A DNA stretch of 24,000 nt from Shewanella sp. MR-4 (GCF_000014685.1 NC_008321.1:2659481-2683480); one strand, 5' to 3'; numbered from the stretch's first letter, positions 4,367-24,000 are shown. The notes: generated by a model from the sequence alone, not told the origin. Program-made: numbers and translations.

Positions 4367-4368
4367 GT

Positions 4369-6623: not shown

Positions 6624-6625
6624 CC

Positions 6626-7309
6626 ATGAATTTTCTTAATGGTTTTTTCTTTGATATTTATCCTTATATTGCCGCAGCTGTGTTCTTTATCGGTAGTTGG
6701 CTCAGATATGACTACGGCCAATATACTTGGCGGGCAGGCTCGAGCCAGCTATTGGATAATACGAATATGCAACTTGCTTCTGGCCTATTTCATATAGGTA
6801 TTATTGGGATCCTACTGGGGCATTTTTTTGGAATGCTAACCCCACATTGGATGTATGAATCCTTCTTGTCGATTCAGACTAAACAACTTATTGCCATGAT
6901 CGCTGGGGGAATTTTTGGTCTGATGACAATTGCCGGTGGAGCAATGCTACTCAAGCGAAGATTGACTAATGTTCGTGTCCGCGCAACATCGTCATTTGCC
7001 GATATCATGATCCTCACGTTACTTGTCATCCAAGCTTGTCTAGGGGTGCTAACGATTCCTTTCTCTGCCCAACATTTAGATGGTAGTGAAATGATGAAAT
7101 TAGTCAGTTGGGTGCAAGGCATTGTCACATTCCAAGCTGGAGCATCCGCTCACTTAGAGGGCGTTGGTTTTATATTTAGATTGCATATGGTCTTAGGCAT
7201 GACACTGTTCTTACTATTTCCATTCTGCCGATTAGTACATATTTGGAGTGTACCTGTCGAATATCTCACCCGCCGCTATCAAATTGTCCGTAGCCGGAAC
7301 AATATCTAA
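6626..7309 (+). CDS. narI: Respiratory nitrate reductase gamma subunit (membrane cytochrome b)
   Basis: A 227-aa ORF with about 5 hydrophobic helices and conserved His residues ([28 protein letters not shown]). It is the last gene of the narGHJI order. Confidence 0.93.
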
Positions 7310-7472: not shown

Positions 7473-7974
7473 TTGTCATACAGACCAACTGACCTAGCTC
7501 TATCATCGCCGTACTTTATTTCTATAAAGCCCACAAATAACACTGCAAGCCTAACAACAGCTGTATATATTGACCGTTTCGAGCGGATAAACGTTCATTG
7601 GGGCCACGCAATCGGAGATGCGGCGCTTATTTATATCGCAAGGTTGACGCAAACTAAACTGAGTTCGAGTGATATTCACACCCGTCTAGGGGCTTACCTG
7701 ATGTTATCCAATACTGACCATGAAGACATCGGCAAGTTGCGGAATCGATTCGACATGGGCTTGGTATGCAGCCATAGCACCATGATGGACATAGCATCCG
7801 CTGCATCGCAAGCTTTGGTTTATCATCCATAATCTTACCGAAAATCAATCACCTCGAGAGGTGCAAACTTCCTTGGAGAGCTTATTCAATCATGCCATTC
7901 AGGCCATGACGCGAGCCAAACACGCAGAGAAGAATAGAGTAAATACAGCAAAAAACAGTCATCTTGTAGTTTAG
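7473..7974 (+). pseudogene. Degenerate, frameshifted GGDEF (diguanylate cyclase) domain remnant
   Basis: The 7473-7832 frame reads ...AVYIDRFERINVHWGHAIGDAALIYIARL...DIHTRLGAYLMLS, the GGDEF-domain pattern DxDxFKxxNDxxGHxxGD...RxGGDEF with the GGDEF signature lost. A different frame over 7879-7974 reads SLFNHAIQAMTRAKHAEKNRV, the usual C-terminal ADxAMYxAKxxGRNRV motif. No sensor domain or credible start is present. Confidence 0.5.
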
Positions 7975-8119
7975 ATAATTCTCACATACCATAAGATACT
8001 TTGTTATATCAGGCAGACCACACAAAAACCTTAACAAATAAGTTATCTTTGGACAAAGTTATTCCTAAAATTTTGCTCATTCAAATATACGAAATTCTCA
8101 TCAAAAGAATAATATAGCT

Positions 8120-9076
8120 TTAATTTAAAAATTTATTCAAATTACATTGTCTACATTTATCATCACAATTAAAAAGGCATTGTAGTTTTTTTTGCACATC
8201 TTTGAGAACAGCAGGATTGCTAATAGCTTTAATTATATTAAATTTCATTAGATACATACCCATTTTATTATCACTACTTCGATAGTACTTCACTTCCTTT
8301 GCTTCGAACACAACTTTACAAAAGCTAAGCATAGGCGGAAAGTCTGCTATAAAAAAATAAACATAATCCTTTTCGCTTGAAAATTTTAACAAATAATAAC
8401 AAATTGCAAGATTGATAAGTTCAAAATAATGTTTGGAACTAGTATAGTAACCAGGCATTACTAAGGCGCTTTTTTTTACTTCATCCTTATCAAGCTTGAT
8501 AAAATGAGGACTATCATTTAGAGGCAAAAGATTCGCAATCCCTGACCAATGCCCCACTATCAGACCATCATCATTCTTCAACAAAAGAGCTGTATACAAT
8601 AAATCTTTAGTAGACAAAAATTTATTAAACTCCTTTAAAGATAAAATATTACTATTAAACTTACCAAAAATATTTTGATACTCATCACTTCTAATCTCTG
8701 AAACCTCCGAAATGACATGTTCAGGCAACTTAAAGTAAGAGAATGATGATATTGAAAAATCTAGCGCCTTCGAGAGTAGATTAACGGCAGTCATAGCCTT
8801 ATTAGAGGACTTTTGTTCCAATACATCGACCTCTTTGAGTATATCGACAAAGTTAACCCCCAAAATCTTTGCAATATACAATTGTTTATATAACGGAGGA
8901 GTACTCTTGCCATTAATCCAGCGACTTAAGGTAATTAAATCCAATCCATCGAATATATCGTAATACTCACACTGCAACAGCGCGATCAAATCTTTCCTAG
9001 ATATTTCTTTTTGCTCAATCCATGACTCCAATTTAGTTGAAAACTTGTATGTCACAATAGCCCCTATACATTGCAA
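8120..9076 (-). CDS. Hypothetical protein: N-terminal XRE-like helix-turn-helix plus roughly 220-aa uncharacterised domain and Cys-rich tail
   Basis: A 318-aa ORF in AT-rich DNA. Residues about 15-80 (ISRKDLIALL...ITLSRWINGKSTPPLYKQLYIAKILGVN) fit an XRE/Cro-type HTH. I do not recognise the rest. The C-terminus is CLFNCDDKCRQC. The track start is TTG at 9076. An in-frame GTG at 9055, preceded by AGGGG, is a plausible alternative start. Confidence 0.6.
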   Translation of the reverse strand: MQCIGAIVTYKFSTKLESWIEQKEISRKDLIALLQCEYYDIFDGLDLITLSRWINGKSTPPLYKQLYIAKILGVNFVDILKEVDVLEQKSSNKAMTAVNLLSKALDFSISSFSYFKLPEHVISEVSEIRSDEYQNIFGKFNSNILSLKEFNKFLSTKDLLYTALLLKNDDGLIVGHWSGIANLLPLNDSPHFIKLDKDEVKKSALVMPGYYTSSKHYFELINLAICYYLLKFSSEKDYVYFFIADFPPMLSFCKVVFEAKEVKYYRSSDNKMGMYLMKFNIIKAISNPAVLKDVQKKLQCLFNCDDKCRQCNLNKFLN

Positions 9077-9634: not shown

Positions 9635-9853
9635 ATGAACCATAAACGTTATCCCGAAGAATTTAAAATCGAAGCTGTTAAGCAAGTTACCATTGCTGGC
9701 TATTCTGTTGCTGATGTTACTCAGCGTTTAGGAACAACCACCCACAGTCTTTATGCCTGGATTAAGCGCTATGACCCCGATTCAGAAGAACATTTGCAAA
9801 AGTCTAAGAGTCCGTCGAGAACGGCTACAGAAAGAGCTCAAGCGTGGCACTGA
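9635..9853 (+). pseudogene. IS3-family OrfA (HTH) fragment
   Basis: MNHKRYPEEFKIEAVKQVTIAGYSVADVTQRLGTTTHSLYAWIKRY is the canonical IS3/IS911-type OrfA N-terminus. The leucine-zipper part continues in another frame (9753-9971). Confidence 0.8.
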
Positions 9854-10200
9854 AGAACATGACTTGTTAAAAATGCAGCAGAATACTTCGCTAGCCACCC
9901 CGAGTAAGATACGCCTTTATTCAACAGCATCATCACAGCTATTTAGTGCGACAACTTTGTCAGCTGTTTGATGTTCATCCGAGCGGGTATTACTCATGGA
10001 GAATCAGCCATATGGAGAATCAGCCACAAATCAAAGTAACAGAAGGAAAATGAACGACTTGCTGGACAGCTTAAGTTGAGTTAGCTTGAATCTGGTGGAG
10101 ATTATGGATATCGGAAACCTTGTGCTCGCGGCGGTGAACGCCATATAGTGACGCTAAATCGTTTAGAGCGACAATTTAATCCATCGGCCCCCAATATGGC

Positions 10201-10407
10201 TTGGATAGCCGATATTACCTGCATCAAAAAAATGAAGATTGGTTATATGTTGGTGCAGTTATGGACTTATTTTCTCGTCGTATTACTGGTTGGTTGATGG
10301 GCAGCAGAATAACCAAAGAGCTAGCCTTAGAAGTGCTTTTAATGGCTATATGGAGCCGTAAACCTACAGGTAAGGTGTTAGTCCACTCAGATCCGGAAAG
10401 CCAATAG
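10201..10407 (+). pseudogene. IS3-family OrfB (DDE transposase) fragment
   Basis: ..WLYVGAVMDLFSRRITGW...VLVHSDPESQ* corresponds to the first-D and second-D regions of IS3 OrfB (DITYI..WLYLAVVxDLFSRxIVGW...HSDRGSQY). It is truncated and frameshifted on both sides. Confidence 0.75.
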
Positions 10408-10640: not shown

Positions 10641-11657
10641 CTATTCATAAGTCATAACAACTATTGTTTTTGCCTCAACTGTTCCTGCAGTCAAAACTGG
10701 GTCCACTTGTATATATCTAGCTGAAAATGGAATGGTGTAACTCGCAGCGGCCGAGTCATCAGCACCAACAACATAAAATGGTGTATTTAGTACAATTGCC
10801 CCCCCCCAGTTGTTCGATAGAATCTGTATATTAACCCCATCGGCAGATGTCGTTGAGGTCAATGTAGATAGAGAATCGCTAGAGTTACTCGAGTTATAAG
10901 CATCTGAAAAACTGATATAAGCTTTTGTTCCACTTTGACAAGTCACATTCAGGTTAAAGTTTTTTTCCCCAGCGCCAGTTCCAACACCATTAAAATCACC
11001 AACATTCACAGTTGGCAAATTAACAACCTTATTATCATCTTCCGTTGAAAAAGAACATGTACCTGGGTTGACATTCACTGTAAATAAATATGAAACGTCC
11101 CGACTTACATAGCCATTATTTGAGTATTGATTCTCAGATAAATATGCATACCCTAATCCTCCATAAACTTGATGAATTCCTTTATCGATAACTCCCCTTA
11201 CATGAAATCGAGTTTTGTAGTGTGCCGAGTACCAGCCGTTACCATCCGGATGATTACGTAAATTAACATGTCTACTTGATATAGTAGCCAAATTAATCCA
11301 AGGACCACCACTATCTTTTACCCATAGTTCATAAAAAACATTCGGATTATTAGTAGCAAACATCGCGGTAGAATCAATAGTTTCTATTTGCGAATTAGGG
11401 GAGTAAAACCAATGTGAACTTCCTGCTGAAGAGCAACCATAAAAGGTCCAGTACAACCCATTTCCTCCAGTTGTATACCAATCAGAAGTAAATACACTAG
11501 AGTCACTCATATCCCCTTGAGATACATCACCCATATTAATACTTGCATTTAGATATACATTAGGAGCCCCAACACTTGTACAATATGCCAATATTTTTTC
11601 GCTGAAAAATAAAAGTAAACAAAAAACACAAAAACGAAACTTTATTGCAAAAAACAT
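10641..11657 (-). CDS. Two-domain fimbrial tip adhesin (N-terminal receptor-binding domain plus C-terminal pilin domain), in-operon
   Basis: A 338-aa ORF with a signal peptide (..EKILA/YCTS) and Cys pairs in both halves. The C-terminal half (GTCSF..NLNVTCQSG...GVNIQIL...IPFSARYIQV...GTVEAKTIVVMTYE) has the fimbrial pilin-domain pattern. It is the last gene of the pilin-chaperone-usher-adhesin order, as in F17-type operons. Confidence 0.8.
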   Translation of the reverse strand: MFFAIKFRFCVFCLLLFFSEKILAYCTSVGAPNVYLNASINMGDVSQGDMSDSSVFTSDWYTTGGNGLYWTFYGCSSAGSSHWFYSPNSQIETIDSTAMFATNNPNVFYELWVKDSGGPWINLATISSRHVNLRNHPDGNGWYSAHYKTRFHVRGVIDKGIHQVYGGLGYAYLSENQYSNNGYVSRDVSYLFTVNVNPGTCSFSTEDDNKVVNLPTVNVGDFNGVGTGAGEKNFNLNVTCQSGTKAYISFSDAYNSSNSSDSLSTLTSTTSADGVNIQILSNNWGGAIVLNTPFYVVGADDSAAASYTIPFSARYIQVDPVLTAGTVEAKTIVVMTYE

Positions 11658-11753
11658 ATTGAAGACCCGTTACATTAACATTTCACACCATTTACTTCTG
11701 CTTATAAAATTGCAAAAAACAAAGCATATATACAGAAACGACTTCACAATAAA

Positions 11754-14213
11754 CTAAATACAATCAACATTTAAAATATTCAACGTGCCTTTAGATTTAT
11801 TTTTATTGACATCATACTTAATAGAACAATACTCCCCATTTTTTATATTAACTTTTAATATTCCATTACTACTTTTTGTTCTTGCAAAAACGATACTTCC
11901 TTGCGCTACATTGCCAATATTTAAACCATTCTCATCAATCACATCAGCACCAAATGGCAATGCATCACCTTTAAAACTACTATTAATTAAAATTGAAAAC
12001 CCAATCTCCGTTCCATATTGTAATTTAACAATTGCACTATCGTAAGGAACTGTTTTATTCACAGTATTGCTCAAGGAAGCATTCTTTGAAGTGCCATTTG
12101 GGTCAACATGAATATGGTTAACTTGATAAGGTCTCAAATTTGGTACAACAGCATGTCCTAGGTTGTTTATTTTAATTCCCTTGTAACCAGAAACAGTTGC
12201 TCCCTCCATACCTTTGGCTTCAACTAAAGCAAAAGTATTTCCTGAGTATGGTGAAAGTGTAACGCCACCAGAATGGCCAACTAATGTCCCAGACAAACCA
12301 AATCCATAACTCTTGTAATTATTTCCTTTGCTTGCATTCGCAGACAACTTAGCAATTGGACTAACATACGAAGCATTACCATTAAAGGAGTTCGAACTTT
12401 CATCGTTTGATACTGACACATCATAACTTAGTAATTTTTCTTCCCCGACCACATCAGACAAACCAACTTGCGCTTGTTGATATCCATCACTATCTCTATT
12501 TAAATTAAGCCTAACTCGTGAATCCCTTAATTCTCCTTCAAAACCAAGAGGAATTGAAAGTGAAAGAGCATAATTTGTTTGATATTGTCCATATTGATCT
12601 TCATTTCTACTCACCGATACCCCCCAGCTAAGCCTTTTATATTGATTATTATAACTGACTTGATATTGTCTAGAATAGTTAGTTTCATTCCAGAAGTTTT
12701 CGAAAACTCCAGAAAGATAAAGATTACCATAACCTTCAGGAAAACTTTGGCCGACAGTAACTAAGTACCTGTTTTTTGAATTATATAAATCGTTATATAA
12801 GTATCCTCTCCTTATATTGTCCAAATACAGCATAGCTGTCTGATAATCCATATACTCTTTGGTACTATATTTATATGCTCCTAAAGACAGATTAGTGCCA
12901 CTCGAAAAAATGTTTTTACTATACTTCAATTCATAACTCTGCCCTGAATAATTTTCGTCTAGAAAAGCATAAGATTGCGTCCCTCCAAATGAAAAAGTAC
13001 CTAAACTTGTGCCCAAAGCGAGACCACCTTGCAATGATAAAAAGTCTTCATTTGCTTGCCCCCCCCAATATCCCGTAACAAAGTTATTAATACCGAGCTC
13101 ATAAGTTCCCTCTATAAGCATGGGAGTAAATGAAAGTCTGTCATTCTTATACTGCCCTATAGAAAATGAATATCTTGAGGTATTAGGCCTTAACAATTGT
13201 GCCATTGACTCATATGGAACAGAAAATCTTTGCTCAGTGCCATCAGCTTCTAAAATAATGACATTTAGATTACCACCATATCCTGTTGGATAGAGATCAT
13301 TTATTAAAAACTCGCCAGGACTCACTAATGTCTCATATATAATACGTCCATTTTGCTCCACCTTAACGATTGCATTAGTTTTAGCCACACCAAAAATTTC
13401 TGGCGCATAACCTTTTTGCGAGTCTGCTAACATATTTTGGTCATCATAAATCTGCATACCTAGCAATGGTACTGTGTCAAATAATCTACCATTCGTATTT
13501 TTCTTCCCAAGAACAACATTACCTTTAATGCTGGCAACTGGCCTATAAAGATACGAGTCTAGTGCGTTGTATTGCTCACCTGTATACTCATTCCAGCTAT
13601 ACATACCTTTATGCTTAAAATACCAACCATTAATATTTATACCAGAATCAAAATATGCATTAAAATTTTTGACATCATTTGGACTGACACCGAATAAATC
13701 ATAGGATATATAGGCCGCAGAGATCCCTCTTTCCCACTCGGCAGGATCAACATATCCTCTAACGACCTTATCAAGATATATCTGAGGCACCTGTATATCT
13801 AACTTTGACATTCCCATTGTAAAGTTCACTGCTGAGCCAACAATCACCTCCTCCAATACTATACAGTCTTTAATAAGATTGTCACTTTCAATTAAAATAG
13901 ACTCTTTTATTCCTAATGAGTTTAAGATATTCATATCTATACATGGACGTGACTTACCACCATCCTCTTTAACCTCAAGAGAAACCTTTTTTAAAAAGGA
14001 ACCATTAACGAATAAATCGGCAGGATAGACACCACTAGGAACATAATTACTATATGCAAATTTTTGAATCAAAGAGGCATCATTTACATTGAAAAATGCG
14101 CTATCAAATTCAATCATTTCATTTTCTTTTGCGAATGTAAAACTACCAAACAGAATAAAAAAAATAGGAAAAACACTGCTTAAAACATTCAATTTATGAT
14201 ATATGAAGTTCAT
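11754..14213 (-). CDS. Fimbrial outer-membrane usher
   Basis: An 819-aa ORF with a signal peptide. It has the N-terminal FDSAFF..(L)..VPSGVYPADLFVNG motif typical of PapC/FimD-family ushers, a long beta-rich Gly/Tyr/Asn-rich body and a C-terminal Cys pair. The start is 2 nt after the chaperone stop. Confidence 0.92.
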   Translation of the reverse strand: MNFIYHKLNVLSSVFPIFFILFGSFTFAKENEMIEFDSAFFNVNDASLIQKFAYSNYVPSGVYPADLFVNGSFLKKVSLEVKEDGGKSRPCIDMNILNSLGIKESILIESDNLIKDCIVLEEVIVGSAVNFTMGMSKLDIQVPQIYLDKVVRGYVDPAEWERGISAAYISYDLFGVSPNDVKNFNAYFDSGININGWYFKHKGMYSWNEYTGEQYNALDSYLYRPVASIKGNVVLGKKNTNGRLFDTVPLLGMQIYDDQNMLADSQKGYAPEIFGVAKTNAIVKVEQNGRIIYETLVSPGEFLINDLYPTGYGGNLNVIILEADGTEQRFSVPYESMAQLLRPNTSRYSFSIGQYKNDRLSFTPMLIEGTYELGINNFVTGYWGGQANEDFLSLQGGLALGTSLGTFSFGGTQSYAFLDENYSGQSYELKYSKNIFSSGTNLSLGAYKYSTKEYMDYQTAMLYLDNIRRGYLYNDLYNSKNRYLVTVGQSFPEGYGNLYLSGVFENFWNETNYSRQYQVSYNNQYKRLSWGVSVSRNEDQYGQYQTNYALSLSIPLGFEGELRDSRVRLNLNRDSDGYQQAQVGLSDVVGEEKLLSYDVSVSNDESSNSFNGNASYVSPIAKLSANASKGNNYKSYGFGLSGTLVGHSGGVTLSPYSGNTFALVEAKGMEGATVSGYKGIKINNLGHAVVPNLRPYQVNHIHVDPNGTSKNASLSNTVNKTVPYDSAIVKLQYGTEIGFSILINSSFKGDALPFGADVIDENGLNIGNVAQGSIVFARTKSSNGILKVNIKNGEYCSIKYDVNKNKSKGTLNILNVDCI

Positions 14214-14215
14214 AT

Positions 14216-14917
14216 TTATAAACCTACAATTTTTTGTTTTTCTGTCGCGCCATAGTCATTTATGAATGATATATTATGAACCAAAGAACTATTATATTCA
14301 CTTGAAACAGTCAACACTTCAAATGGTGAAATCATTATGTTTTCTATTAATTTTTTTTCAATATCACCACTTTCAACTGCAGATATACTCAAAATAGTAA
14401 TAAAAAAAGGTGTAGGATTATTAATTTCCATTCCATTTTCTAACTTGCTCAACTTTATTTTTTCCACAGCGCTACTTGTTGACCCATCTAATGAGGTAGG
14501 TCTGAAAAATAGTTTTATCTTGGTTTTAAATGCAAGTTGGAGCTTATTAGCATTAGAATTATTCTTCGGGGGGACCGAAAGTACGTTTAACCAAAATATA
14601 GACTCTTTATTATCTGGAAGAGTTTCCCCTGTGTAAAAAATTCGCAAATGCTGTCCCTCGCCAGCATTAATCTTGTTTATAGGAGGTGATATGACAAATG
14701 GAACTTTAATATTGGAAGGATCTAAATTAAGCTCGCCATTATCAATCCAACTCTGAACTAGAAATGGTTCACTTCCTTTATTTGTCAACTTCAAACTAAC
14801 TTCTTCTTTATCTGATCTATATATTATCCTTGTATTATCCAGTACAACACTAGCTTCCACTGATGAAAAAATAAAAATTGATATAAATATTGCAAATTTA
14901 TATTTCAAACCATTCAT
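14216..14917 (-). CDS. Periplasmic fimbrial chaperone (PapD-like)
   Basis: A 233-aa ORF with a signal peptide and the TRIIYRSDKEEVSLKLTNKGSEPFLVQSWID motif (RxIY...L.N....P.LVQSW), the hallmark of PapD/FimC chaperones. A GGAGGG RBS lies upstream. Confidence 0.92.
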   Translation of the reverse strand: MNGLKYKFAIFISIFIFSSVEASVVLDNTRIIYRSDKEEVSLKLTNKGSEPFLVQSWIDNGELNLDPSNIKVPFVISPPINKINAGEGQHLRIFYTGETLPDNKESIFWLNVLSVPPKNNSNANKLQLAFKTKIKLFFRPTSLDGSTSSAVEKIKLSKLENGMEINNPTPFFITILSISAVESGDIEKKLIENIMISPFEVLTVSSEYNSSLVHNISFINDYGATEKQKIVGL

Positions 14918-14942
14918 TTATATCAGCCCTCCATATAAAGAG

Positions 14943-14972
14943 GCACGTGTATAAATACTCTCATACACGTGC
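14943..14972 (-). promoter_or_regulatory. Intercistronic stem-loop between the major pilin and chaperone genes (partial terminator or mRNA stabiliser)
   Basis: A perfect 10-bp stem GCACGTGTAT/ATACACGTGC with a 10-nt loop lies 12 nt after the pilin stop on the minus strand. It is followed by CTCTTTATAT and then the chaperone RBS. Confidence 0.6.
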
Positions 14973-14984
14973 ACCATTTCATTG

Positions 14985-15533
14985 TTACATATAATGAATA
15001 GAATAAGTGACACTAGAAGTAACTGTGCCAGCAGTTGCCGCTGCACCTTCAGCATAATATTCAACAGCATATGGTAGAATCGCTGTACCATCCCCGGCTA
15101 CAGTTGTTGCTGTATTACTTGTTTTCTGACCTTCATCGCCAGCCTTAATAACACTTGAATTCACCGCATCAAGCAATTGCAAAGAGACATTTCCTGCCGT
15201 ACCATTATTTTTCAAACGGCCAGTAGTAGCCACAACATTTGTGCCGCTCTCAAAGAAAGCAACAACCTGTGACTGATTTGCATCCAGAGTACATTCTGAC
15301 AAATTAATTGTGAATGTTGTTCTACCTGCTACCACAGTGTCTGCGGCTAAATCCGAAGTAGAAACAGTTGGAAGTGTAACAACTGCATCTGCACTGGTGC
15401 CATTAACTTTAACAGTACAAGTCGACGATGTAACTTCACCGTTAAATGTAATGGTTCCTGTCGATGCTTTAGCTGTTGGCACCACGATTACGGGTAAACA
15501 TGCAATTGCTAAAGAAATAATTTTTTTATTCAT
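14985..15533 (-). CDS. Major fimbrial subunit (type-1/F17-A-like pilin)
   Basis: A 182-aa ORF with a signal peptide (..TAKA/STGTITFNGEVTSSTCTV), a Cys pair (C..C about 40 aa apart) and a C-terminal ..TSSVTYSIHYM beta-strand with penultimate Tyr. An AAGGTGAG RBS lies upstream. The mature N-terminus GTITFNG resembles F17-A as I remember it. Confidence 0.9.
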   Translation of the reverse strand: MNKKIISLAIACLPVIVVPTAKASTGTITFNGEVTSSTCTVKVNGTSADAVVTLPTVSTSDLAADTVVAGRTTFTINLSECTLDANQSQVVAFFESGTNVVATTGRLKNNGTAGNVSLQLLDAVNSSVIKAGDEGQKTSNTATTVAGDGTAILPYAVEYYAEGAAATAGTVTSSVTYSIHYM

Positions 15534-15616: not shown

Positions 15617-15711
15617 TTCAACCTTTTATAATTAGCATCAAAAAATAAAAATCACCATAGACGCTCTTGACATTGAAGATATATGCATGCTAACAAAACT
15701 AACTTTAATGT

Positions 15712-15745
15712 ATAAAAAAGGCCGCCTAACTTTATATAGGCGGCC
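15712..15745 (-). terminator. Strong rho-independent terminator oriented on the minus strand, inside the fimbrial upstream region
   Basis: GGCCGCCTA-(8 nt)-TAGGCGGCC at 15720-15745 forms a 9-bp GC-rich stem. On the minus strand it is followed by TTTTTTAT (plus-strand A6 at 15714-15719). On the plus strand only TTT follows. Confidence 0.7.
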
Positions 15746-15779
15746 TTTAGCTAGTAACACTTTAACTTCCTTGATAAAT

Positions 15780-15900
15780 CCCTTTCTCACCGAATCCCTT
15801 CTCACAGAATCCCTTCTCACAGAATCTCCCTTCTCACAGAATCCCTTCTCACAGAATCCCTTCTCACAGAATCCCTTCTCACAGAATCCCTTCCTCTCTC
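15780..15900. repeat. Tandem array of a 15-bp unit CCCTTCTCACAGAAT (about 7.5 copies)
   Basis: The units are 15780-15795 (16 bp variant ccctttctcaccgaat), 15796-15810, 15811-15825, 15826-15842 (17 bp, extra ct), 15843-15857, 15858-15872 and 15873-15887, then a partial unit cccttcct... Five units are identical. Confidence 0.95.
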
Positions 15901-16063
15901 TACAGACTACAAAACCTCTAATAATCCGTTTAATTTCGCATTGTTTAGAACGTTACAAAACAAAATGGCACAAAAAGACATCCTGTACACCCTGTACCTG
16001 CAAAGACATATTTTGCCATCTGCAAAAAGGCCAGACTTAGCACTCACAAAAAAAGCGCGCGTC

Positions 16064-16137: not shown

Positions 16138-16659
16138 ATGATTAATTGTACTTGTGATCTTTTAAACATACTAATGCAAAGTTACAATATCAACTTTACT
16201 AATAAAATTAGTTATAGATTATGTTTGGTTAACAAAAAACATAGTGAATCACCTATAAAAGGAAATATTTATACTATTTTGATCAATGATTCAAATTTTG
16301 ACTCATCGGCAAAGAACCATATTGTCAATCAAAGATTATTATTAACAAACACTCCTAGAGAAATTTTTAATATAATCCGAAAAAACAAAATAAAACTTGA
16401 GAAGTTAGAATGCAGATTTCTATTCCTACCATTTGAGCGTAGTTATTTGTGCGATATGCATCTGCTAATAGAACTACTTGACTTACAGGTCTGTCTTTCG
16501 AAGTCAAACATAGGGCTAGTAATTGAAATAAATCACCGTTCCCATTATGGCTGTACAGATTGCCCAAATGCCAATTTAGGATTGAAATATATTGATAAAA
16601 AAATAGACATTATATACACAAAAAAATCAAATGAAGATTTTTTCACTAAATCACCTTGA
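16138..16659 (+). CDS. Truncated, degenerate EAL-like protein (paralogue of 21412-22134), possibly a pseudogene
   Basis: A 173-aa ORF with an AAGGAA RBS. It aligns by eye to the 240-aa EAL protein: YTILIND/YQNIIDR, FLFLPFERSYL/FLNVDKHLL, LVIEINHRSHYG/IVFEITERQYG, KKIDII/IKIDMH. The E.L..R, N, second E of ExxE and DD positions are substituted. The EGVE and QG segments are absent and about 20 aa are deleted internally. Confidence 0.5.
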   Translation: MINCTCDLLNILMQSYNINFTNKISYRLCLVNKKHSESPIKGNIYTILINDSNFDSSAKNHIVNQRLLLTNTPREIFNIIRKNKIKLEKLECRFLFLPFERSYLCDMHLLIELLDLQVCLSKSNIGLVIEINHRSHYGCTDCPNANLGLKYIDKKIDIIYTKKSNEDFFTKSP

Positions 16660-16764
16660 ATATGACTAATCAGCCAATGATCAAGACTTATATTTTTATG
16701 ATTGTATATAGGTAAATGTATAAATCATATAGTTCACTAATTAAAACCCATAGAGACTTAGAGG

Positions 16765-17748
16765 ATGTTCATGAGAAAAACTGTAAATTTTAAATGGATT
16801 ATTCCTATAATTTTGTGGGGTGCACAAAATCAATCTGTTTATGCATTTTATTGCTCTTTCAGTTCGACCACAACAACAATTAAATTGAGTGATGTAGCAA
16901 ACATCGGTGATGAAATCGTTCTTTATAACTTAGCAGGGCAAACTTGCAGTGGTTGGGGAAGCCCTAACTATCTAGATGCACTTAGAGTTTATAGTTTCAC
17001 TGAATACAATATTTTGCAAGGTTCTGGACTTTCAGTGTTCTATGTCGATAATGGCTATTACTACAAATACCCAGAAGTTATTAATCGCTGTGTTTGGCCT
17101 TGGAGTGGAAGTACATGTCCTTACTCTACCTTTACGGATGGTACCTACCCTGTCAGAGGACGGCTAGTGCTCAGACGGACGGGCACCACCGCATCCAACG
17201 TAACTATTCCTGCAAACTCAAAATTAGCCGAAATTGGGTTTCAGCAAAGAGGATATTCCAGCTCAGGACCAGCATGGAGTAGTAACGTTTATAAAATATC
17301 CGTCTCAAATAGTGACGCATTATCTTTTCCAACGTGTGATGTAGATATTGGCAGTCAAAATCAAACTATAGCTTTTTCTCCAGTATCTTCAAATCAATTC
17401 TCGGGGATTGGGACGACCGCTGAAAGTGAATTGTTTTCAATAAAATTAAATTGCAAAGCGGGTGTTTCTGTATATGCAACCGTTACCGATTCGAATCAAC
17501 TAGGTAGCGCAGGCCCTAACTTATCACTTGATCCAAGCTCAAGTGCCGCAGGGGTTGGCATTCAAGTTTTGTATAATGGCGCACCATTGGGATTCGGAGT
17601 TGCAAACCAATTTTATGTAGCAGGAAACGCCTCCACTCCGGAAGTATCACACATAGTTCCCTTTGAAGCACGTTATGTTCAAACTCAATTGAAAATTATT
17701 CCTGGCTCGGTGTCTGCAAAAGCGATCATATCTTTTGAATATTTGTAG
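16765..17748 (+). CDS. Orphan two-domain fimbrial adhesin paralogue
   Basis: A 327-aa ORF with a signal peptide (..SVYA/FYCSF). The C-terminal half (PTCDV..KLNCKAGVSVYATVTDSNQLGSAGPNLSLD..GVGIQVL..VPFEARYVQT..PGSVSAKAIISFEYL) is a pilin domain closely related to 20243-21238. The N-terminal half is unrelated by eye. A second ATG at 16771 has better spacing to the GAGG and may be the true start. Confidence 0.8.
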   Translation: MFMRKTVNFKWIIPIILWGAQNQSVYAFYCSFSSTTTTIKLSDVANIGDEIVLYNLAGQTCSGWGSPNYLDALRVYSFTEYNILQGSGLSVFYVDNGYYYKYPEVINRCVWPWSGSTCPYSTFTDGTYPVRGRLVLRRTGTTASNVTIPANSKLAEIGFQQRGYSSSGPAWSSNVYKISVSNSDALSFPTCDVDIGSQNQTIAFSPVSSNQFSGIGTTAESELFSIKLNCKAGVSVYATVTDSNQLGSAGPNLSLDPSSSAAGVGIQVLYNGAPLGFGVANQFYVAGNASTPEVSHIVPFEARYVQTQLKIIPGSVSAKAIISFEYL

Positions 17749-18704
17749 TAAGACAATTTAAAGCTGTATAGATCGCTAATGATTCCCCTAGGCACCTTTT
17801 AGTTAGATGAACTAACACAAGAGATGCCTAGAGACCACAACCTTATCCCAGAGAATTTATAATCGAAGCTGTTAATAAATTACCTTTGCAGTTCATTCTG
17901 TTGTTGCTCAACGCTTAGGTCCATTCAGAGATTAAACGCTATGGCTCAGATTCAGATCAACACTTGCGCAATGTTTGATTAATCTGCCGAAATTAATCAA
18001 CTTCAGAAAAAATAAAGCGTGTAACTGAAAAATGTGACTAGTTAAAAAGCTGCCGCGTACTTTGGAGCCTGTCCTCGTAAGATACGCCTTTTTTCAAGAA
18101 CATCACTACTTGCCAGTACAACAACTTTATGAACGAGTTTAATGTTAATCTGAGCAGGTTTTACGCACCGAGAAACCGCTCTAAATCAAAGTAGCAGAAG
18201 GATAATAAAAGAAGACTTACAGGGCAACTCCAAAGGAGGTATCTCGGAGTTTGTGGTGTTATAGATATCCTAAAATCTGCCGAGATATGAGGACATTGGC
18301 TGGTAATGTGAGATTAATCGTGTACACCGACTCATGCGACTAGTAGGACTGAAAGTATAAGTTGAAATCGGAAACCACGTGCTCATGCAGGTGAACGGCA
18401 TGTAATCGCCAAATCGTTTAGCGGCAATGTATCCCAGAGGCTCCCGATATGGTTAGAGGTAATCGATATTTATAACATCAAAATACATGAAGGTTGGTTT
18501 TATCTTGGAAGATTGATGGGTAAAAGAATAGCTAAATCCCTGGTATTACAGCGTTTTTAATGGCTATATGGTGCGTTAAATCTACAGGTAAGATTACTTA
18601 ATTGTAAACAATGAAACCAATATTCCCAGCCATGACTGGAGTGAACTTCTTACTGCACATGGATTGGAAGGCGCCATGAGACGACGTGGTAATTAGTATG
18701 ATAA

Positions 18705-18713
18705 TGCCGTAGT
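18705..18713. repeat. 9-bp target-site duplication TGCCGTAGT (left copy) of the IS10-like element
   Basis: An identical 9-mer directly abuts both IS ends (18705-18713 and 20032-20040). Confidence 0.9.
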
Positions 18714-20031
18714 CTAGCAAATCCCCAGATAAATTCGATGGAATTCAAATAAGTAGACACGCATGATGCTGTTTGATCTAATTAATTTCGCCAAAAACCT
18801 ACTAGATCCAACATCATGCGTGATATCGACATATTACACGATTTACTCAAAAAACAATGCCCTCAAATACATCAAAAACGCCTTAATTCTCTGATGGTTG
18901 CTACCGAGTCTTTACTCGATGGTAATCAACTCTCGTTAACCCAGTTAGGACGGAACATAACGGGGAATGTTGCACCAAAACACAATATCAAGCGCATTGA
19001 CCGACTGCTCGGAAATTTACATGTTATCAAAGATAAGTTCGCTATTTATCAATGGCATGCACAATATCTCTGCGGCGCAAATCCGATGCCCATTATTCTT
19101 GTGGATTGGTCTGATGTACGCGAGCAACTGCGAATGATTACCTTACGCGCATCAATCAGTGTTAAAGGTCGCTCCATTACTTTGTACGAACGCACTTTTC
19201 TGTTTGAAGATTACAATGCTCCACGCAGTCATAACGCTTTCCTAGTTGAGCTTGCAAACGTATTGCCGCCAGGATGCTGCCCGCTCATCGTCACCGATGC
19301 AGGTTATCGCAATACTTGGTTTAGGGAAGTTGAGCGCCATGGCTGGTTTTGGCTAGGTAGAGTTCGCGGTGACGTCAGTTTTATGCTCAACGGCCAAACA
19401 TCATGGCAGTCAAATAAATCCCTCTATCCTAAAGCGAATTCAACCGCGAAATACATAGGTAGTGTCAAGTTAGCACGCAAGTCTCCGCTACAATGTTACC
19501 TGCACTTGTTTAAAGCTAAACCTAAGCTGCGTAAGGATAAACGCTCTTCTAAGGCTGGACGAAATCACACCGCACAAAAGAGTTACAGCTTAGGAAGTAA
19601 AGAGCCTTGGCTACTCGCCACCAATCTACCTCCAGATTACTTTGGCCCTTCGAAGGTCGTCGATTTGTATGCTAAACGAATGCAAATTGAAGAAACCTTC
19701 CGCGATTTAAAAAGTCCGCAATATGGCATGGGCCTCAGACAAAGCCGCAGCCGTTGTCCAAAGCGATATGATGTATTGCTGCTCATCGCTATGCTCGCTG
19801 AAATCGTGTTGTGGTGTATTGGGTTAGCGGCACAACACCTTGGATGGCAAAGATATTTTCAAGCCAATACCGTGAGAAAGCGGGCAGTGCTATCAATTGT
19901 TAGACTTGGAAAGGAAGTACGTAAAAGAGACAAATATCCGGTAAAGGAGACAATTTTTCGCTGGGCATTAGTCGAATATATAAACTTAGTTCATGACGCT
20001 GGAAGACCTCAATTATGAGGGGATCCCCCAG
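18714..20031 (+). mobile_element. Intact IS10-like (IS4 family) insertion sequence, 1318 bp
   Basis: The ends are CTAGCAAATCCCCAGATAAATT (left) and the reverse complement CTGGGGGATCCCCTCATAATT (right). They resemble the IS10 ends CTGA.GAATCCCCT.AT.ATT as I remember them. There is a single full-length transposase ORF and a 9-bp TSD, as IS10 makes. Confidence 0.92.
18816..20018 (+). CDS. IS4-family (IS10-type) DDE transposase
   Basis: A 400-aa ORF colinear with the IS10 transposase as remembered: DILHD...HNIKRIDRLLGN..., ILVDWSD (D1), LIVTDAGY (D2), KEPWLLATNLP, YAKRMQIEETFRDLKSPQYGMGL (E, YREK region), FQANTVR..VLS.VRLG.EV. Confidence 0.95.
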   Translation: MRDIDILHDLLKKQCPQIHQKRLNSLMVATESLLDGNQLSLTQLGRNITGNVAPKHNIKRIDRLLGNLHVIKDKFAIYQWHAQYLCGANPMPIILVDWSDVREQLRMITLRASISVKGRSITLYERTFLFEDYNAPRSHNAFLVELANVLPPGCCPLIVTDAGYRNTWFREVERHGWFWLGRVRGDVSFMLNGQTSWQSNKSLYPKANSTAKYIGSVKLARKSPLQCYLHLFKAKPKLRKDKRSSKAGRNHTAQKSYSLGSKEPWLLATNLPPDYFGPSKVVDLYAKRMQIEETFRDLKSPQYGMGLRQSRSRCPKRYDVLLLIAMLAEIVLWCIGLAAQHLGWQRYFQANTVRKRAVLSIVRLGKEVRKRDKYPVKETIFRWALVEYINLVHDAGRPQL

Positions 20032-20040
20032 TGCCGTAGT
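20032..20040. repeat. 9-bp target-site duplication TGCCGTAGT (right copy)
   Basis: See 18705-18713. Confidence 0.9.
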
Positions 20041-20242
20041 ATAGAGCTTTTCCCTGTTATTAAAGCATGAAAAAATAATATAGAAGCTCTATTCTACAAG
20101 AGAAACGCCACAAAGAGTGATTTTTAAGTGCGTTGTTGCTAAACAAATTAGGCCACTAGTGAAATAATAGCTATTCAGGGCTGTTTTACATTCTCATTTA
20201 GGAAAACGATATTTTGTTTAAATTCTACAAAGGGAGTAAAAG

Positions 20243-21238
20243 TTATAGGTAACTGAATGAAATCACTGTTTTGGCTATGACTGTCCCAGGATTTATAATT
20301 GTTGAAGTTTGTACATAACGTGCTTCAAACGGCACAGAATAAGTACTCGCCGAAGGTATTCCTGTTCCAGAGATATAAACAGGATTGCCAAATGATAAAG
20401 GATTGCCACTCTGTAATAATTGAATACCAACCCCCGATGCAGTCGAGGAACCATCAAGAGATAAGTTAGGCCCAGTATTACTTAATTGGTTAGTATCACT
20501 AACAGTAGCATAGACAGAAACTCCTGCATCACAATCTAACACAATCCCAAATGGCACGCTTTCAGCTGTTGTTCCAACACCTAAGAAGTCACTTGTTGAA
20601 ACCTCAGGGAGTAAAACAGTTTGCTCTGAATTATTTACAGTGCATGTTGGGGCTGTTACTATTGAAGATCCAAAACCCATTCTGTTATAAATAGCAGAAT
20701 CTGATGATACAACCGAATAATATCTGCTTGTTAATGCTTTAATTGTTGGAATAGGTAACTGTATCACTCCTGACTTTAAAGGCCCGGTAACAATAAACCG
20801 CACATATATAGAGGCAAGATACGCAGCACCGCCAGATGTATTATGTTGATACCAGTACTTAGGTGTGTTACCAATCATGACTGTCTTACCGAAGGTAGTG
20901 TATACTTGAACTCCAACTCCATCAACGTTGGTATCGTACACTTCATATCCATTATATGTGACGCTCGACTTTACCATGGGCTGCTCAAAAGCTAACCACA
21001 TATAAGGTATATAACCGCAGTTCAGAGCAGAAGCACTCCCACTAAAAGAGCCAAATAGTGCTAGCTGTTGGCCTATTGACACATTGGCTGGCACACTAAC
21101 ACTCCCTAGCGAGCGATTGCTGTAGATAGCGTTAGCGCTGCAAGCTTCAGCTTTAGCAATAAAGATAAAACAAAAAAAAACCAGACCAACTAGAGCAAAA
21201 ATTAGCCACAGCATTTTCTTCTCAGATAGAAACATCAT
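20243..21238 (-). CDS. Orphan two-domain fimbrial adhesin paralogue
   Basis: A 331-aa ORF with a signal peptide (..FIAKA/EACSAN). The C-terminal pilin domain (PTCTV..VLDCDAGVSVYATVSDTNQLSNTGPNLSLD..GVGIQLL..VPFEARYVQT..PGTVIAKTVISFSYL) is clearly paralogous to 16765-17748. The N-terminal roughly 190 aa are divergent. Confidence 0.8.
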   Translation of the reverse strand: MMFLSEKKMLWLIFALVGLVFFCFIFIAKAEACSANAIYSNRSLGSVSVPANVSIGQQLALFGSFSGSASALNCGYIPYMWLAFEQPMVKSSVTYNGYEVYDTNVDGVGVQVYTTFGKTVMIGNTPKYWYQHNTSGGAAYLASIYVRFIVTGPLKSGVIQLPIPTIKALTSRYYSVVSSDSAIYNRMGFGSSIVTAPTCTVNNSEQTVLLPEVSTSDFLGVGTTAESVPFGIVLDCDAGVSVYATVSDTNQLSNTGPNLSLDGSSTASGVGIQLLQSGNPLSFGNPVYISGTGIPSASTYSVPFEARYVQTSTIINPGTVIAKTVISFSYL

Positions 21239-21345
21239 TACTCACCCATAAAATATTTCAACATAGCACAGCTCTTAAATAAGAATTTTGAAATTTACCA
21301 CCATGCCAAAAAAAAGAGTTGGCACGCGCGCAATTATTTCTCAAG

Positions 21346-21365
21346 AGATGCTAACTACTCGCAAC
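21346..21365 (+). promoter_or_regulatory. Conserved upstream motif AGATGCTAACTACTCGCAAC (second copy)
   Basis: See 16064-16081. It lies in the 173-bp divergent region between the adhesin (20243-21238) and the EAL gene (21412-). Confidence 0.35.
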
Positions 21366-21411
21366 TAAAACTAGGTGATTATTTTTATTAAAATAATTAG
21401 AGGTTCTAATA

Positions 21412-22134
21412 ATGATATACACCTCCACAGTAAGTCATTGCAAATATAAACAATGTATTTTCCATAGTGTAGAATGTGATAAGTCAAATTGTCGACATTA
21501 TTATATCTACCAAAATATCATTGATAGAAATGGAGGCTTACACGCCATTGAAATCCTTTCAAGACCTATCTCAAACATTAAAATCTCAATAGAAAAATAC
21601 TTTGACATATTAAGTCAAGATGAAGGAACGAAGATATTAAAACATCAATTACTAAACTTTTCTAAAAACTTCAAAAAACTGGATATTGGAACAAAAAAAA
21701 TTTTTTTGAATGTTGATAAACACCTACTTAATAACCAAAAAAATGTCGACTTGCTTATTAACAGCAGCACTGACTTTAACCAAAATTTCTGGGAGATTGT
21801 TTTTGAAATCACAGAAAGACAATATGGAAAAATCCCTGGGATAAGAAATGCTTTTTGCCAAATGATATTAAATGATGTGTTATTTGCCGCAGATGATTAC
21901 TCATCAATTACAAACACGCATAATTTTTTAATTGACTACACCTATATAAAAATAGATATGCATGAAATAATTGAGCGTACGAATCGAGACTTTAATGATT
22001 TTATTGATGAGCTTTATTTAATGAAAGAATGCGGCAAAAAACTTATAGTAGAAAAAATACAGACACAAAATGATTACCTTTTAACAATCGCAATGCCATT
22101 TGACTATTTTCAAGGTTTTTATTTTGATGATTAA
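21412..22134 (+). CDS. Stand-alone EAL-domain protein (putative c-di-GMP phosphodiesterase or c-di-GMP-related regulator)
   Basis: A 240-aa ORF with an AGAGG RBS. EAL-domain motifs appear in order: YQNIIDRNGGLHAIEILSRP (YQPI...G.E.L.R), FLNVD (N), FEITER (ExxE), AADDYSS (DDFG), IKID (KxD), LIVEKIQTQNDY (AEGVE with the first E kept and the second changed to Q), FDYFQGFYF (QG). The size matches single-domain EAL proteins such as PdeH and YdiV. Confidence 0.7.
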   Translation: MIYTSTVSHCKYKQCIFHSVECDKSNCRHYYIYQNIIDRNGGLHAIEILSRPISNIKISIEKYFDILSQDEGTKILKHQLLNFSKNFKKLDIGTKKIFLNVDKHLLNNQKNVDLLINSSTDFNQNFWEIVFEITERQYGKIPGIRNAFCQMILNDVLFAADDYSSITNTHNFLIDYTYIKIDMHEIIERTNRDFNDFIDELYLMKECGKKLIVEKIQTQNDYLLTIAMPFDYFQGFYFDD

Positions 22135-22413: not shown

Positions 22414-22490
22414 TGGTCGGTATGAGAGGATTCGAACCTCCGACCCCTGACACCCCATGACAGTGCGCTACCGGGCTGCGCTACATACCG
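22414..22490 (-). tRNA. tRNA-Pro, anticodon GGG
   Basis: The reverse complement is CGGTATGTAGCGCAGCCCGGTAGCGCACTGTCATGGGGTGTCAGGGGTCGGAGGTTCGAATCCTCTCATACCGACCA, 77 nt. It has a 7-bp acceptor stem, a GCGC/GCGC D stem, the anticodon loop AUGGGGU (GGG), the T arm GGAGG-TTCGAAT-CCTCT and an encoded CCA. It is almost identical in pattern to E. coli proL as remembered. Confidence 0.95.
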
Positions 22491-22843
22491 AGAATTTTCG
22501 TGCTTAACTAAACTGACTTCTGTAAGCTTAAGCACTTGTTACTTAAGATGCTATCGACTGGGGTTCACCTTAAGTGACGCTGACTTTACCAAGTGGATCG
22601 GCTCAACGCAAGTGCTTAGTGATATGAGTTTGGTCAACTGCTTAGTTTCTGGTCTGAATGGCGAGTTTTGCAAAAAAATTCCCTCCCATCTTGGCTGTAA
22701 CAGCCACTGACTGTGAACTAGAGCGAAACTTAACTGAACCAGTCAATATCAAATTAAGAAACATCTGCTAAGCTAGATGTAATTCATCGTTTCAATGCAA
22801 TAGATTGCTTTTTAAACATAAATTTTGTGGAAGGGAATTATCA

Positions 22844-24000
22844 TTGCGTGTACCTGCTGTTAATGCCGCCCATCTAAAGTTAGCCACCTTTCTTGGTCTA
22901 CTGGGTCTAATACTCAACATTTACCCTATTCCGCTCTTTGCTAACGTGCAGCTTATTTTAGGTAATGCGGCGGTAGTAATAGTGGCCATTCTGCTTGGGC
23001 CTTGGTATGCCCTATTGACAGCCTTATTTACGGCAACAGGCTTGATGTTGGCCTGGTCCAGTGCCCATGTGTATCTGGTGTTTTTACTCGAAGCCCTTTG
23101 GTTGGGGTTTGCGCGGCGCAGAGACGTACCTATCCTGTACGCCAGTATAAGTTACTGGCTGTTAATAGGTTTGCCATTAATGAGTTTGTACCTGTGGCTT
23201 ATCACGGGAATGCCAGCTTACCACATCCCTTTTACCACAATAAAACAAGCATTTAACGGGATTTTCTACACCACGTTAGGGGAGCTTTGCGTGGTCGCCC
23301 TCCCCAGTTTATGGCATTTAAAAGATAGGTTGGTGAATCACACTCGCCGAACCATGAGTTCACAGATCAGCTATCTGTTTATTTTAATTACCACCATCAG
23401 CTTATTAACCTCATCCTTAGTGTTTAACCATTATTTCATGGATAAACAACAAATATTGATTAATCAGAATCTTAACGACACAGGCATCTCCCTTGGACAC
23501 GCCACCGAAACCTACATTAGTACTAACACCCGTACCATTGCCAGTGTCGGGAAATTTATCAGTGTATCGGGTCTACCTTTTGAACAATGGCAGCGCATAC
23601 TCGATAGCGTCCAGAGTCTGACCCCCAGTTTTACCACTATGTTTATTGCCAATGAACATGGGGAGATTGTCGCAGGAAGCCCTATTGAAAAGCTTAATAA
23701 TTTCAAAAAGCTGGAACAAAGGTTCAATGTGCAAGATAGGGATTACTTTATCCAAGCCCTCATTAACCACAACACCTTTGTGTCCCCCGTCTTTATCGGA
23801 AGGGGTTTAGATAAAGAAATCATCATTGCTATCAGTACCCCCATTTTTAAAGAAGGCTCTAACACCGCCATAGGTATTGTGCAAGGAAGCCTAGACTTGG
23901 GGTATTTCTCCAATATTGATAAACAAAATCAACACCATGAAACACAGTCTATTATTTTATTGGATGAGAAAAAGAACATCGTTTATGCATCCGAAAGACT
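22844..24000 (+). CDS. Membrane sensor protein, N-terminal part: polytopic membrane domain plus periplasmic Cache-like domain (3' end and output domain outside window)
   Basis: The frame is open from 22772 to the window end. A TTG at 22844 follows GGAAGGG at about 8 nt. A TTG at 22805 is an alternative start. About 5 hydrophobic helices (LATFLGLLGLILNIYPIPLF..., AVVIVAILLGPWYALLTALF..., etc.) are followed by another TM and then FIANEHGEIVAGSP...VQDRDYFIQAL..FVSPVFIGRGLDKEIIIAISTPIF..GIVQGSLDLGYF, which fits the Cache/dCache pattern. Confidence 0.7.
   Translation, partial: MRVPAVNAAHLKLATFLGLLGLILNIYPIPLFANVQLILGNAAVVIVAILLGPWYALLTALFTATGLMLAWSSAHVYLVFLLEALWLGFARRRDVPILYASISYWLLIGLPLMSLYLWLITGMPAYHIPFTTIKQAFNGIFYTTLGELCVVALPSLWHLKDRLVNHTRRTMSSQISYLFILITTISLLTSSLVFNHYFMDKQQILINQNLNDTGISLGHATETYISTNTRTIASVGKFISVSGLPFEQWQRILDSVQSLTPSFTTMFIANEHGEIVAGSPIEKLNNFKKLEQRFNVQDRDYFIQALINHNTFVSPVFIGRGLDKEIIIAISTPIFKEGSNTAIGIVQGSLDLGYFSNIDKQNQHHETQSIILLDEKKNIVYASER

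Follow-up and report, generated by a model that had tools for sequence, protein, structure and literature searches.

An intact and a truncated stand-alone EAL-domain gene beside orphan adhesin genes in a strain-specific fimbrial island of Shewanella sp. MR-4

In the chromosome of Shewanella sp. MR-4, two orphan genes for two-domain fimbrial adhesins each have an EAL-like gene as their neighbour, which raises the question whether adhesin and EAL protein form a regulatory unit that exists there in two copies. The window analysed here is a stretch of 24,000 nucleotides (GCF_000014685.1, NC_008321.1:2659481-2683480), and all coordinates are counted from its first nucleotide unless another locus is named. 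An earlier note, made from the sequence alone, had proposed for positions 16138-22134 a duplicated two-gene module in which one EAL copy is catalytic and the other has become a protein-binding regulator. The two EAL-like open reading frames (ORFs), of 173 codons (16138-16659) and 240 codons (21412-22134), are indeed present, their positions and orientations relative to the adhesin genes are as described in that note, and homology and motif states confirm that one is near-canonical and the other truncated and degenerate. The duplicated adhesin-plus-regulator module, however, is largely not supported. We interpret the locus as an intact gene for a 240-residue protein that would lower or sense cyclic di-GMP (c-di-GMP) locally, together with the decayed remnant of a Vibrio-type EAL gene, both lying in a fimbrial island scarred by insertion sequences (IS). 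This is a reading in which we place slightly more belief than doubt.

The gene at 21412-22134 (plus strand, 28.5% guanine plus cytosine (GC)) encodes a stand-alone EAL-domain protein that keeps all catalytic and metal-binding residues. It scores 47.9 bits against the Pfam EAL profile (PF00563; gathering score 31.3) over profile positions 9-233 of 236, and its family profile aligns in register with YahA/PdeL and, over the full length, with VcEAL. The alignment to YahA and VcEAL places E47-I-L49-S-R51, N100, E132-I-T-E135, D161-D162, K180-I-D182, E214 and Q234-G235 at the positions expected for the EAL motifs. The Pfam match and the structure alignments thus bear out the description of an EAL domain with most catalytic positions kept. 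An AlphaFold model built with seven homologues reached a mean predicted local distance difference test score (pLDDT) of 56.5, with residues 30-160 mostly between 65 and 90, and a Foldseek search with this confident part returned essentially only EAL domains (YahA, PDB 4kie, E 4e-4). Six Shewanella proteins are homologous at 51-62% identity. In all seven members of this family an invariant cluster, C-x2/4-C-x6-C-x4-C-x-H, replaces the usual first helix and precedes the EAL core; in the MR-4 protein it consists of C10, C15, C22, C27 and H29.

The origin of the ORF at 16138-16659 (plus strand, GC 27.8%) is visible only through intermediate proteins. It has no match in NCBIfam or the PDB, and the search with PF00563 that had been proposed for both proteins gave no direct Pfam match either. 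A word-indexed search of 5.8 billion proteins returned only the ORF itself, which at the level of 90% identity is known from this genome only. An exhaustive phmmer search yielded three proteins of 231-239 amino acids (P0009-P0011) that match residues ~23-155 with E values of 1e-6 to 6e-5, one of which passes the Pfam EAL cut-off with 38.7 bits. A profile search from these matches led to a family of ~236-residue Vibrio proteins with precomputed PF00563 matches. A hidden Markov model (HMM) was built from 14 Vibrio relatives, with the window sequence left out, and it matched the ORF with 62.0 bits, aligning residues 6-155 to model positions 2-146 of 236. As judged from this transitive homology, the EAL ancestry of the 173-codon ORF is real.

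What is left of the domain is degenerate. The glutamate of the EAL motif is replaced by T46, the asparagine by P98 and the second glutamate of ExxE by H133 (E130-I-N-H133). At the place of the EALxR arginine, N or D is already found across the whole Vibrio family. The homology spans 16153-16602 and ends at residue 155, just before the DD strand, and tblastn searches with all family members found no match to their residues 146-236 in the entire window, whichever reading frame was searched. The substitutions of the glutamate, the asparagine and the second ExxE glutamate, as well as the loss of the EGVE and QG segments, were therefore described correctly in the earlier note, but the DD pair is absent rather than substituted, together with the KxD, catalytic-base glutamate and QG segments. 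The last ~18 codons are unrelated to the family, which is about the read-through to a first stop codon that we presume for DNA of 28% GC (~13 codons by our own estimate). Because the homology ends at ~16602 and the 3' segments are absent, the ORF represents a gene stripped of its 3' third and is most probably a pseudogene. With the C-terminal 38% of the domain missing, the complete (beta/alpha)8 barrel is not encoded, and judging by the alignment its product cannot form one. A single-sequence AlphaFold model was uninformative (pLDDT 32). Fragments of the same EAL family also occur in Vibrio madracius (locus L027) and in a metagenome-assembled genome of Vibrio (L029), so the decay of such genes is not unusual. 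Two motifs of the Vibrio-type family persist in the remnant, an invariant LCD and a CxxC directly behind ExxE; like the Cys/His cluster of the Shewanella type, they are possible metal or redox sites.

The two EAL-like proteins were also compared with each other. The alignment between them that had been reported from the sequence did not hold up in direct comparison: BLASTP gave an E value of 0.94, hhalign of the 173-residue product against the family of the 240-residue protein gave a probability of 0.9% over 48 ungapped columns, and the HMM of that family scored the ORF at 7.4 bits, a value matched by 20 of 5000 shuffled sequences. The shared EAL ancestry emerges through intermediates. The Vibrio-family HMM matches the 240-residue protein with 37.0 bits (positions 25-231), and a bridging EAL protein of 256 amino acids from locus L028 is similar to both EAL-like proteins of the window (E values of 8e-7 and 1e-9). 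Both ORFs therefore belong to one broad clade of small stand-alone EAL proteins, albeit to different subfamilies, and the only solid link between them runs through these intermediate sequences. By sequence, the clade is characterized by a length of ~235-256 amino acids, AT-rich genes, stand-alone domains and a non-canonical loop 6.

Some of these observations agree with the proposed module. Each orphan adhesin gene has an EAL-derived neighbour, the two EAL proteins share the broad clade, and in both pairs an EAL gene of ~28% GC abuts an adhesin gene of 40% GC, although a low GC marks the small-EAL clade in all hosts that were examined. Against a duplication stand the lack of direct detectable similarity between the EAL-like proteins and their assignment to different subfamilies, one Vibrio-type and one Shewanella-type, which makes them not each other's closest relatives. 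The arrangement of the pairs is also unlike. The first orphan adhesin gene, adhesin 2 (16765-17748, plus strand, 327 amino acids, Pfam Fimbrial match at residues 189-326), lies 105 base pairs (bp) downstream of the remnant and is co-directional with it, whereas adhesin 3 (20243-21238, minus strand, 331 amino acids, Pfam Fimbrial match of 76.4 bits) is divergent from the intact EAL gene across a gap of 173 bp. Finally, the similarity of the two adhesins (54% identity) is confined to the pilin domain, and they have unrelated lectin domains.

The gene contexts of relatives point to a different partner. Three assemblies of V. vulnificus and two of V. hepatarius have the relative of the 173-codon ORF divergent from a five- to six-gene usher cluster of the TcfC/CooC type, with a Big_2 adhesin gene next after it. 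The EAL gene of L028 stands first and co-directional in an F17-like set of major subunit, chaperone and usher genes that are 48, 44 and 41% identical to those of the window. In V. makurazakiensis (L026), 35 bp separate a small EAL gene from the Big_2/Lcl_C/InvE-type adhesin gene downstream of it, an order that would suit the module. Since these contexts vary between TcfC/CooC, F17-like and Big_2 types, the conserved partner of the Vibrio-type EAL is a fimbrial operon or any adhesin gene and not specifically an orphan F17-type adhesin. The MR-4 remnant occupies the same position as the intact V. vulnificus gene, divergent from the major-subunit gene of an operon. In the window both EAL genes are embedded among fimbrial genes, the remnant beside the F17-like operon and the intact gene beside adhesin 3. 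V. owensii, V. mediterranei and other Vibrio relatives have no adhesion genes nearby. As a background control, none of 80 generic metagenome EAL loci (823 kb) had usher, chaperone or adhesin homologues, although this control is crude and taxonomically unmatched, consisting of metagenome matches to the family of the 240-residue protein that are all distant (21-30% identity). Overall, a recurrent link of small EAL genes of this clade to adhesion loci is supported, and a literature search returned no account of EAL genes linked in this way in Vibrio or Shewanella. The segment L028 (3388-8114) is labelled as a metagenome-assembled genome of Labilibaculum (Bacteroidota), but its gene content looks gammaproteobacterial; probably the binning is wrong or the segment was laterally transferred.

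The homologues of the 240-residue protein behave differently. Their genes adjoin a tRNA-Ser island integrase (Shewanella mangrovisoli and S. xiamenensis), IS605 tnpA/tnpB, or MipA and RND genes, and tblastn searches with all fimbrial proteins of the window found nothing in the four sampled contexts. The expected co-occurrence of EAL and fimbrial genes in other genomes thus exists for some relatives of the remnant but not for the intact gene, whose pairing with an adhesin is not conserved in any of these four contexts. For this pair, that is an outcome which the earlier note had named as refuting its proposal.

The island holds one complete F17-like operon, two extra adhesin genes and two members of the small-EAL clade, and we propose the following course of events. 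Small-EAL regulatory genes would once have been carried together with fimbrial genes, or would have been acquired through successive IS-mediated events. A rearrangement with a breakpoint near base 16602 would have removed the 3' third of the Vibrio-type copy, in which three of the four surviving catalytic positions are mutated. The 240-residue protein, going by precedent, would lower or sense c-di-GMP locally and might thereby bias the expression of the F17-like operon and/or of adhesin 3, whose divergent control region of 173 bp its gene shares. By analogy, its action is most likely similar to that thought for MrkJ, FimK, Fim2K and SfaY on their own fimbrial clusters.

Several findings weigh against this interpretation. 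Loop 6 of the 240-residue protein reads DDYSSITNTH instead of the canonical DDFG(T/A)GYSS, and the EGVE position reads EKIQ; DDYSSIT(N/K)TH and EK(I/V)Q are common to the whole Shewanella subfamily. The conserved loop 6 and intact EGVE of catalytically competent class I EAL domains are thus lacking. Work on RocR has established that loop 6 is needed for EAL catalysis. In recent classification practice, EAL domains with partly deviating signatures are treated as being of uncertain activity (PMC12900916). Because of this practice and the replaced loop 6, we grade the protein as only a probable phosphodiesterase or c-di-GMP-binding protein; with such motifs it may bind c-di-GMP yet fail to hydrolyse it. 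The C-terminal half of its AlphaFold model, from residue 162 on, has a pLDDT below 50. As to the remnant, the ORF is still open in DNA of 28% GC and has a plausible Shine-Dalgarno sequence, its product retains the LCD and CxxC cysteines of the Vibrio family, and a residual non-enzymatic function is possible. Lastly, the lack of fimbrial neighbours among the homologues of the 240-residue protein means that its placement here could be that of incidental island cargo.

This last point leads to the strongest of the alternatives, namely that mobile AT-rich EAL genes are coincidental passengers that came to lie beside adhesin genes through IS shuffling and that affect c-di-GMP globally if at all. 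The integrase, IS605 and MipA/RND neighbourhoods of the 240-residue family would be expected under this alternative, as would the several Vibrio relatives without nearby adhesion genes (V. owensii, V. mediterranei and others), the ISShes5-like element and IS3 remnants in the island, and the AT-richness of the small EAL genes relative to every host locus examined. However, at least five independent loci place the Vibrio-type subfamily beside two usher classes as well as Big_2 adhesin genes, such neighbours were seen at none of the 80 generic EAL loci, and FimK, MrkJ, Fim2K and SfaY provide experimental precedent for locus-specific fimbrial EAL regulators. We regard the passenger scenario as unlikely, with enough in its favour to be taken seriously.

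A more far-reaching idea is that the small mobile AT-rich EAL proteins, with their replaced loop 6 and subfamily-specific Cys motifs, are dedicated regulators of adhesion loci in marine Gammaproteobacteria. They would have been recruited repeatedly to different usher classes and Big_2 genes, sometimes along with a hitherto undescribed 318-residue partner, and might act as redox- or metal-gated c-di-GMP sensors and not as plain phosphodiesterases. In this full form the idea is speculative and we think it rather improbable.

The partner just mentioned is encoded at 8120-9076 (minus strand). The protein of 318 amino acids has an N-terminus that weakly matches the XRE-type helix-turn-helix (HTH) structure 3omt (E 0.058), a C-terminus with a conserved C-x4-C-x3/4-C-x2-C motif and no Pfam or NCBIfam family. 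Over its full length it is 46% identical to the product of a gene that lies tail-to-tail with a small EAL gene in V. owensii, Vibrio sp. M260121 and V. jasicida, in V. owensii (L018) with a gap of only 9 bp. Homologues were located by tblastn at L018 9717-10676, L019 9717-10676, L020 9718-10668 and L029 5017-5961; the last is 36% identical and lies 2.7 kb from the EAL fragment of that locus. An analogous neighbour of 308 amino acids in L025 has a Pfam HTH_3 match and is convergent with its EAL gene. Because homologues of the 318-residue protein pair with small EAL genes in Vibrio, the sequences suggest a conserved gene pair that may constitute a split HTH-plus-EAL regulatory unit, and the protein is a candidate regulatory partner of the EAL protein. 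In MR-4, the small EAL protein and the XRE-like protein could accordingly form the functional regulatory unit, a two-protein counterpart of the HTH-EAL fusions FimK and PdeL in which the 240-residue EAL protein has replaced the decayed Vibrio-type partner. The layout of the island speaks against it, since the operon and an IS3 remnant lie between the 318-residue gene and the EAL remnant, which are separated by 7 kb. Moreover, no homologue of the 318-residue protein lies beside the 240-residue family elsewhere or beside the EAL genes of V. vulnificus, V. hepatarius and L028, and its C-terminal domain has no recognised fold or function. We consider a unit of this kind improbable. We also considered whether the missing 3' end of the EAL remnant lies beside the 318-residue gene, as the Vibrio arrangement would predict, and rejected this, since a frameshifted GGDEF tail is found there instead.

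A duplicated module with one catalytic and one YdiV-like copy that couples the choice of tip adhesin to c-di-GMP is very improbable, given that, beyond the points raised above, the pair was found in no other genome, the relatives of the 240-residue protein lack fimbrial neighbours, and the remnant, without model positions 147-236 and thus without the C-terminal 38% of the domain, cannot adopt the closed barrel of the full-length EAL fold that YdiV retains.

The interpretation of an intact local regulator and a decayed remnant fits what the rest of the window reveals about the island. The Shewanella chromosome carries here, from ~8.0 to 22.4 kb, a low-GC fimbrial island that is scarred by IS elements, and the studied region forms its right-hand part. 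According to the composition profile, GC falls from ~45% outside the island to 28-40% inside. Among ~15 billion proteins clustered at 90% identity, none groups with any of the island's fimbrial or EAL proteins, and the island is therefore strain-specific; E. coli genomes gave no match to the region. The island is flanked by narGHJI (602-7309, NCBIfam narG and narH equivalogs) and a GGDEF pseudogene on the left side and by tRNA-Pro(GGG) on the right (22414-22490, minus strand, ARAGORN and Rfam), the latter located at the edge of the low-GC segment 280 bp past the intact EAL gene. No tRNA-derived direct repeat that would mark the boundary was found at the island ends. Past the tRNA, ~1.5 kb (22500-24000) has 42% GC, no ORF of more than 84 amino acids and no Rfam match, and may be decayed or non-coding sequence.

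The F17-like chaperone-usher operon (10641-15533, minus strand, Pfam FimA and Fimbrial matches) is divergent from the EAL remnant and has the gene order of F17, with the major subunit at 14985-15533, the chaperone at 14216-14917, the usher at 11754-14213 and adhesin 1 at 10641-11657, all on the minus strand. Between it and the 318-residue gene lie fragments of an IS3-family transposase (9635-10407, plus strand; HTH_Tnp_1 at 9635-9853, rve core at 10201-10407), which likewise indicate a mosaic built by IS elements. An ISShes5-like transposase gene of the IS4 family (18816-20018, plus strand, NCBIfam IS4 transposase, 411.6 bits) separates the two orphan adhesin genes. Its protein cluster contains members named ISShes5 in Shewanella baltica, and ~1 kb without ORFs precedes it downstream of adhesin 2. 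Along with these two IS traces, the frameshifted GGDEF gene (7473-7975, plus strand) testifies to decay. Its Pfam GGDEF fragment (7473-7832) covers only profile positions 38-81 and has a degenerate motif (RLGAYLM), and its C-terminal tail, "...AMTRAKHAEKNRV", runs on in another reading frame to ~7975.

We also considered that the remnant and adhesin 2 are what is left of a second operon after an internal deletion, and rejected this in view of the lack of usher, chaperone or major-subunit remnants near either orphan adhesin gene. Adhesin 3, itself a singleton at 90% identity, has a sub-threshold Pfam match to an MrkD-like receptor-binding domain. No inverted repeats that link the two adhesin genes were detected at the DNA level, and there is therefore no evidence for an inversion switch. 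Promoter and terminator scans returned sites no more frequently than in shuffled sequence. The divergent intergenic region of 604 bp between the fimbrial operon and the EAL remnant contains a 15-bp tandem repeat in 7.6 copies (AATCCCTTCTCACAG; 15777-15893, Tandem Repeats Finder score 200, 94% matches). The repeat lies near the midpoint, 244 bp from the start codon of the major subunit and 245 bp from that of the remnant, and is a candidate for a phase-variable array or for one that binds protein; a spurious ORF of 117 amino acids (15687-16040) also arises from it. A strong GC-rich hairpin at 15717-15750 (GGCCGCCTA...TAGGCGGCC), flanked by an A-run and a T-run, lies in the same region. It resembles a terminator of leftward transcription, although no gene that it could serve is apparent.

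The coupling of adhesion to c-di-GMP by fimbria-embedded EAL proteins is already established, and the case presented here is a further example. It adds Shewanella and Vibrio, as well as clusters of the F17-like and TcfC/CooC types, to the known pattern, which is a modest advance, and neither the remnant nor the idea of a module would alter current thinking. Beyond that, the analysis delineates a coherent clade of small EAL proteins in which loop 6 is replaced, and draws attention to a conserved HTH partner gene that is uncharacterised. It also offers a worked example of how an unmatched "orphan" ORF can prove to be a known domain in fossil form. The main remaining lead is the small-EAL clade itself together with the 318-residue partner.

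Among known systems, YdiV (STM1344) is a degenerate stand-alone EAL protein that acts by protein binding as an anti-FlhD4C2 factor. The 173-codon ORF resembles it as a single-domain EAL-like protein that has lost catalytic residues, but YdiV is a complete EAL fold of ~237 amino acids, whereas the ORF covers only model positions 2-146 of 236 and is by appearance a truncation product. In Klebsiella, MrkJ and FimK are EAL phosphodiesterases encoded in fimbrial clusters, where they couple fimbriation to c-di-GMP. FimK has a fused HTH domain and MrkJ works with the PilZ-type activator MrkH, whereas the only regulator candidate of the island is the 318-residue HTH protein; no PilZ or MrkH-like gene was found in the window. 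The closest solved structures by profile, VcEAL of V. cholerae (PDB 6ifq, E 3e-5) and YahA/PdeL (PDB 4kie and 4lj3, E 3e-6), share all catalytic residues in register with the 240-residue protein. They differ from it in having the loop 6 sequence DDFG(T/S)GY and an EGVE motif in place of DDYSSITNTH and EKIQ, and they lack its N-terminal Cys4/His cluster. Another stand-alone phosphodiesterase, SfaY, is encoded in the sfa cluster of neonatal-meningitis E. coli (PMC6385356). MrkJ, FimK and SfaY are like the island EAL genes in being embedded in fimbrial clusters but, unlike the 240-residue protein, have canonical EAL signatures. The nearest counterpart in context is Fim2K, a stand-alone EAL protein encoded beside a tRNA gene on the fim2 fimbrial island KpGI-5 of Klebsiella pneumoniae (PMC3419637). 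Compared by context and not by sequence, both are stand-alone EAL proteins without an HTH domain in a low-GC, tRNA-associated chaperone-usher island, and in both islands the EAL gene is the one nearest the tRNA and lies beside an adhesin gene. Fim2K, however, is a FimK homologue of 285 amino acids that is co-transcribed downstream of fim2H in a type-1 (gamma1) operon, whereas the MR-4 protein is a member of a subfamily specific to Shewanella, has a non-canonical loop 6 and is encoded by a gene divergent from that of an orphan adhesin.

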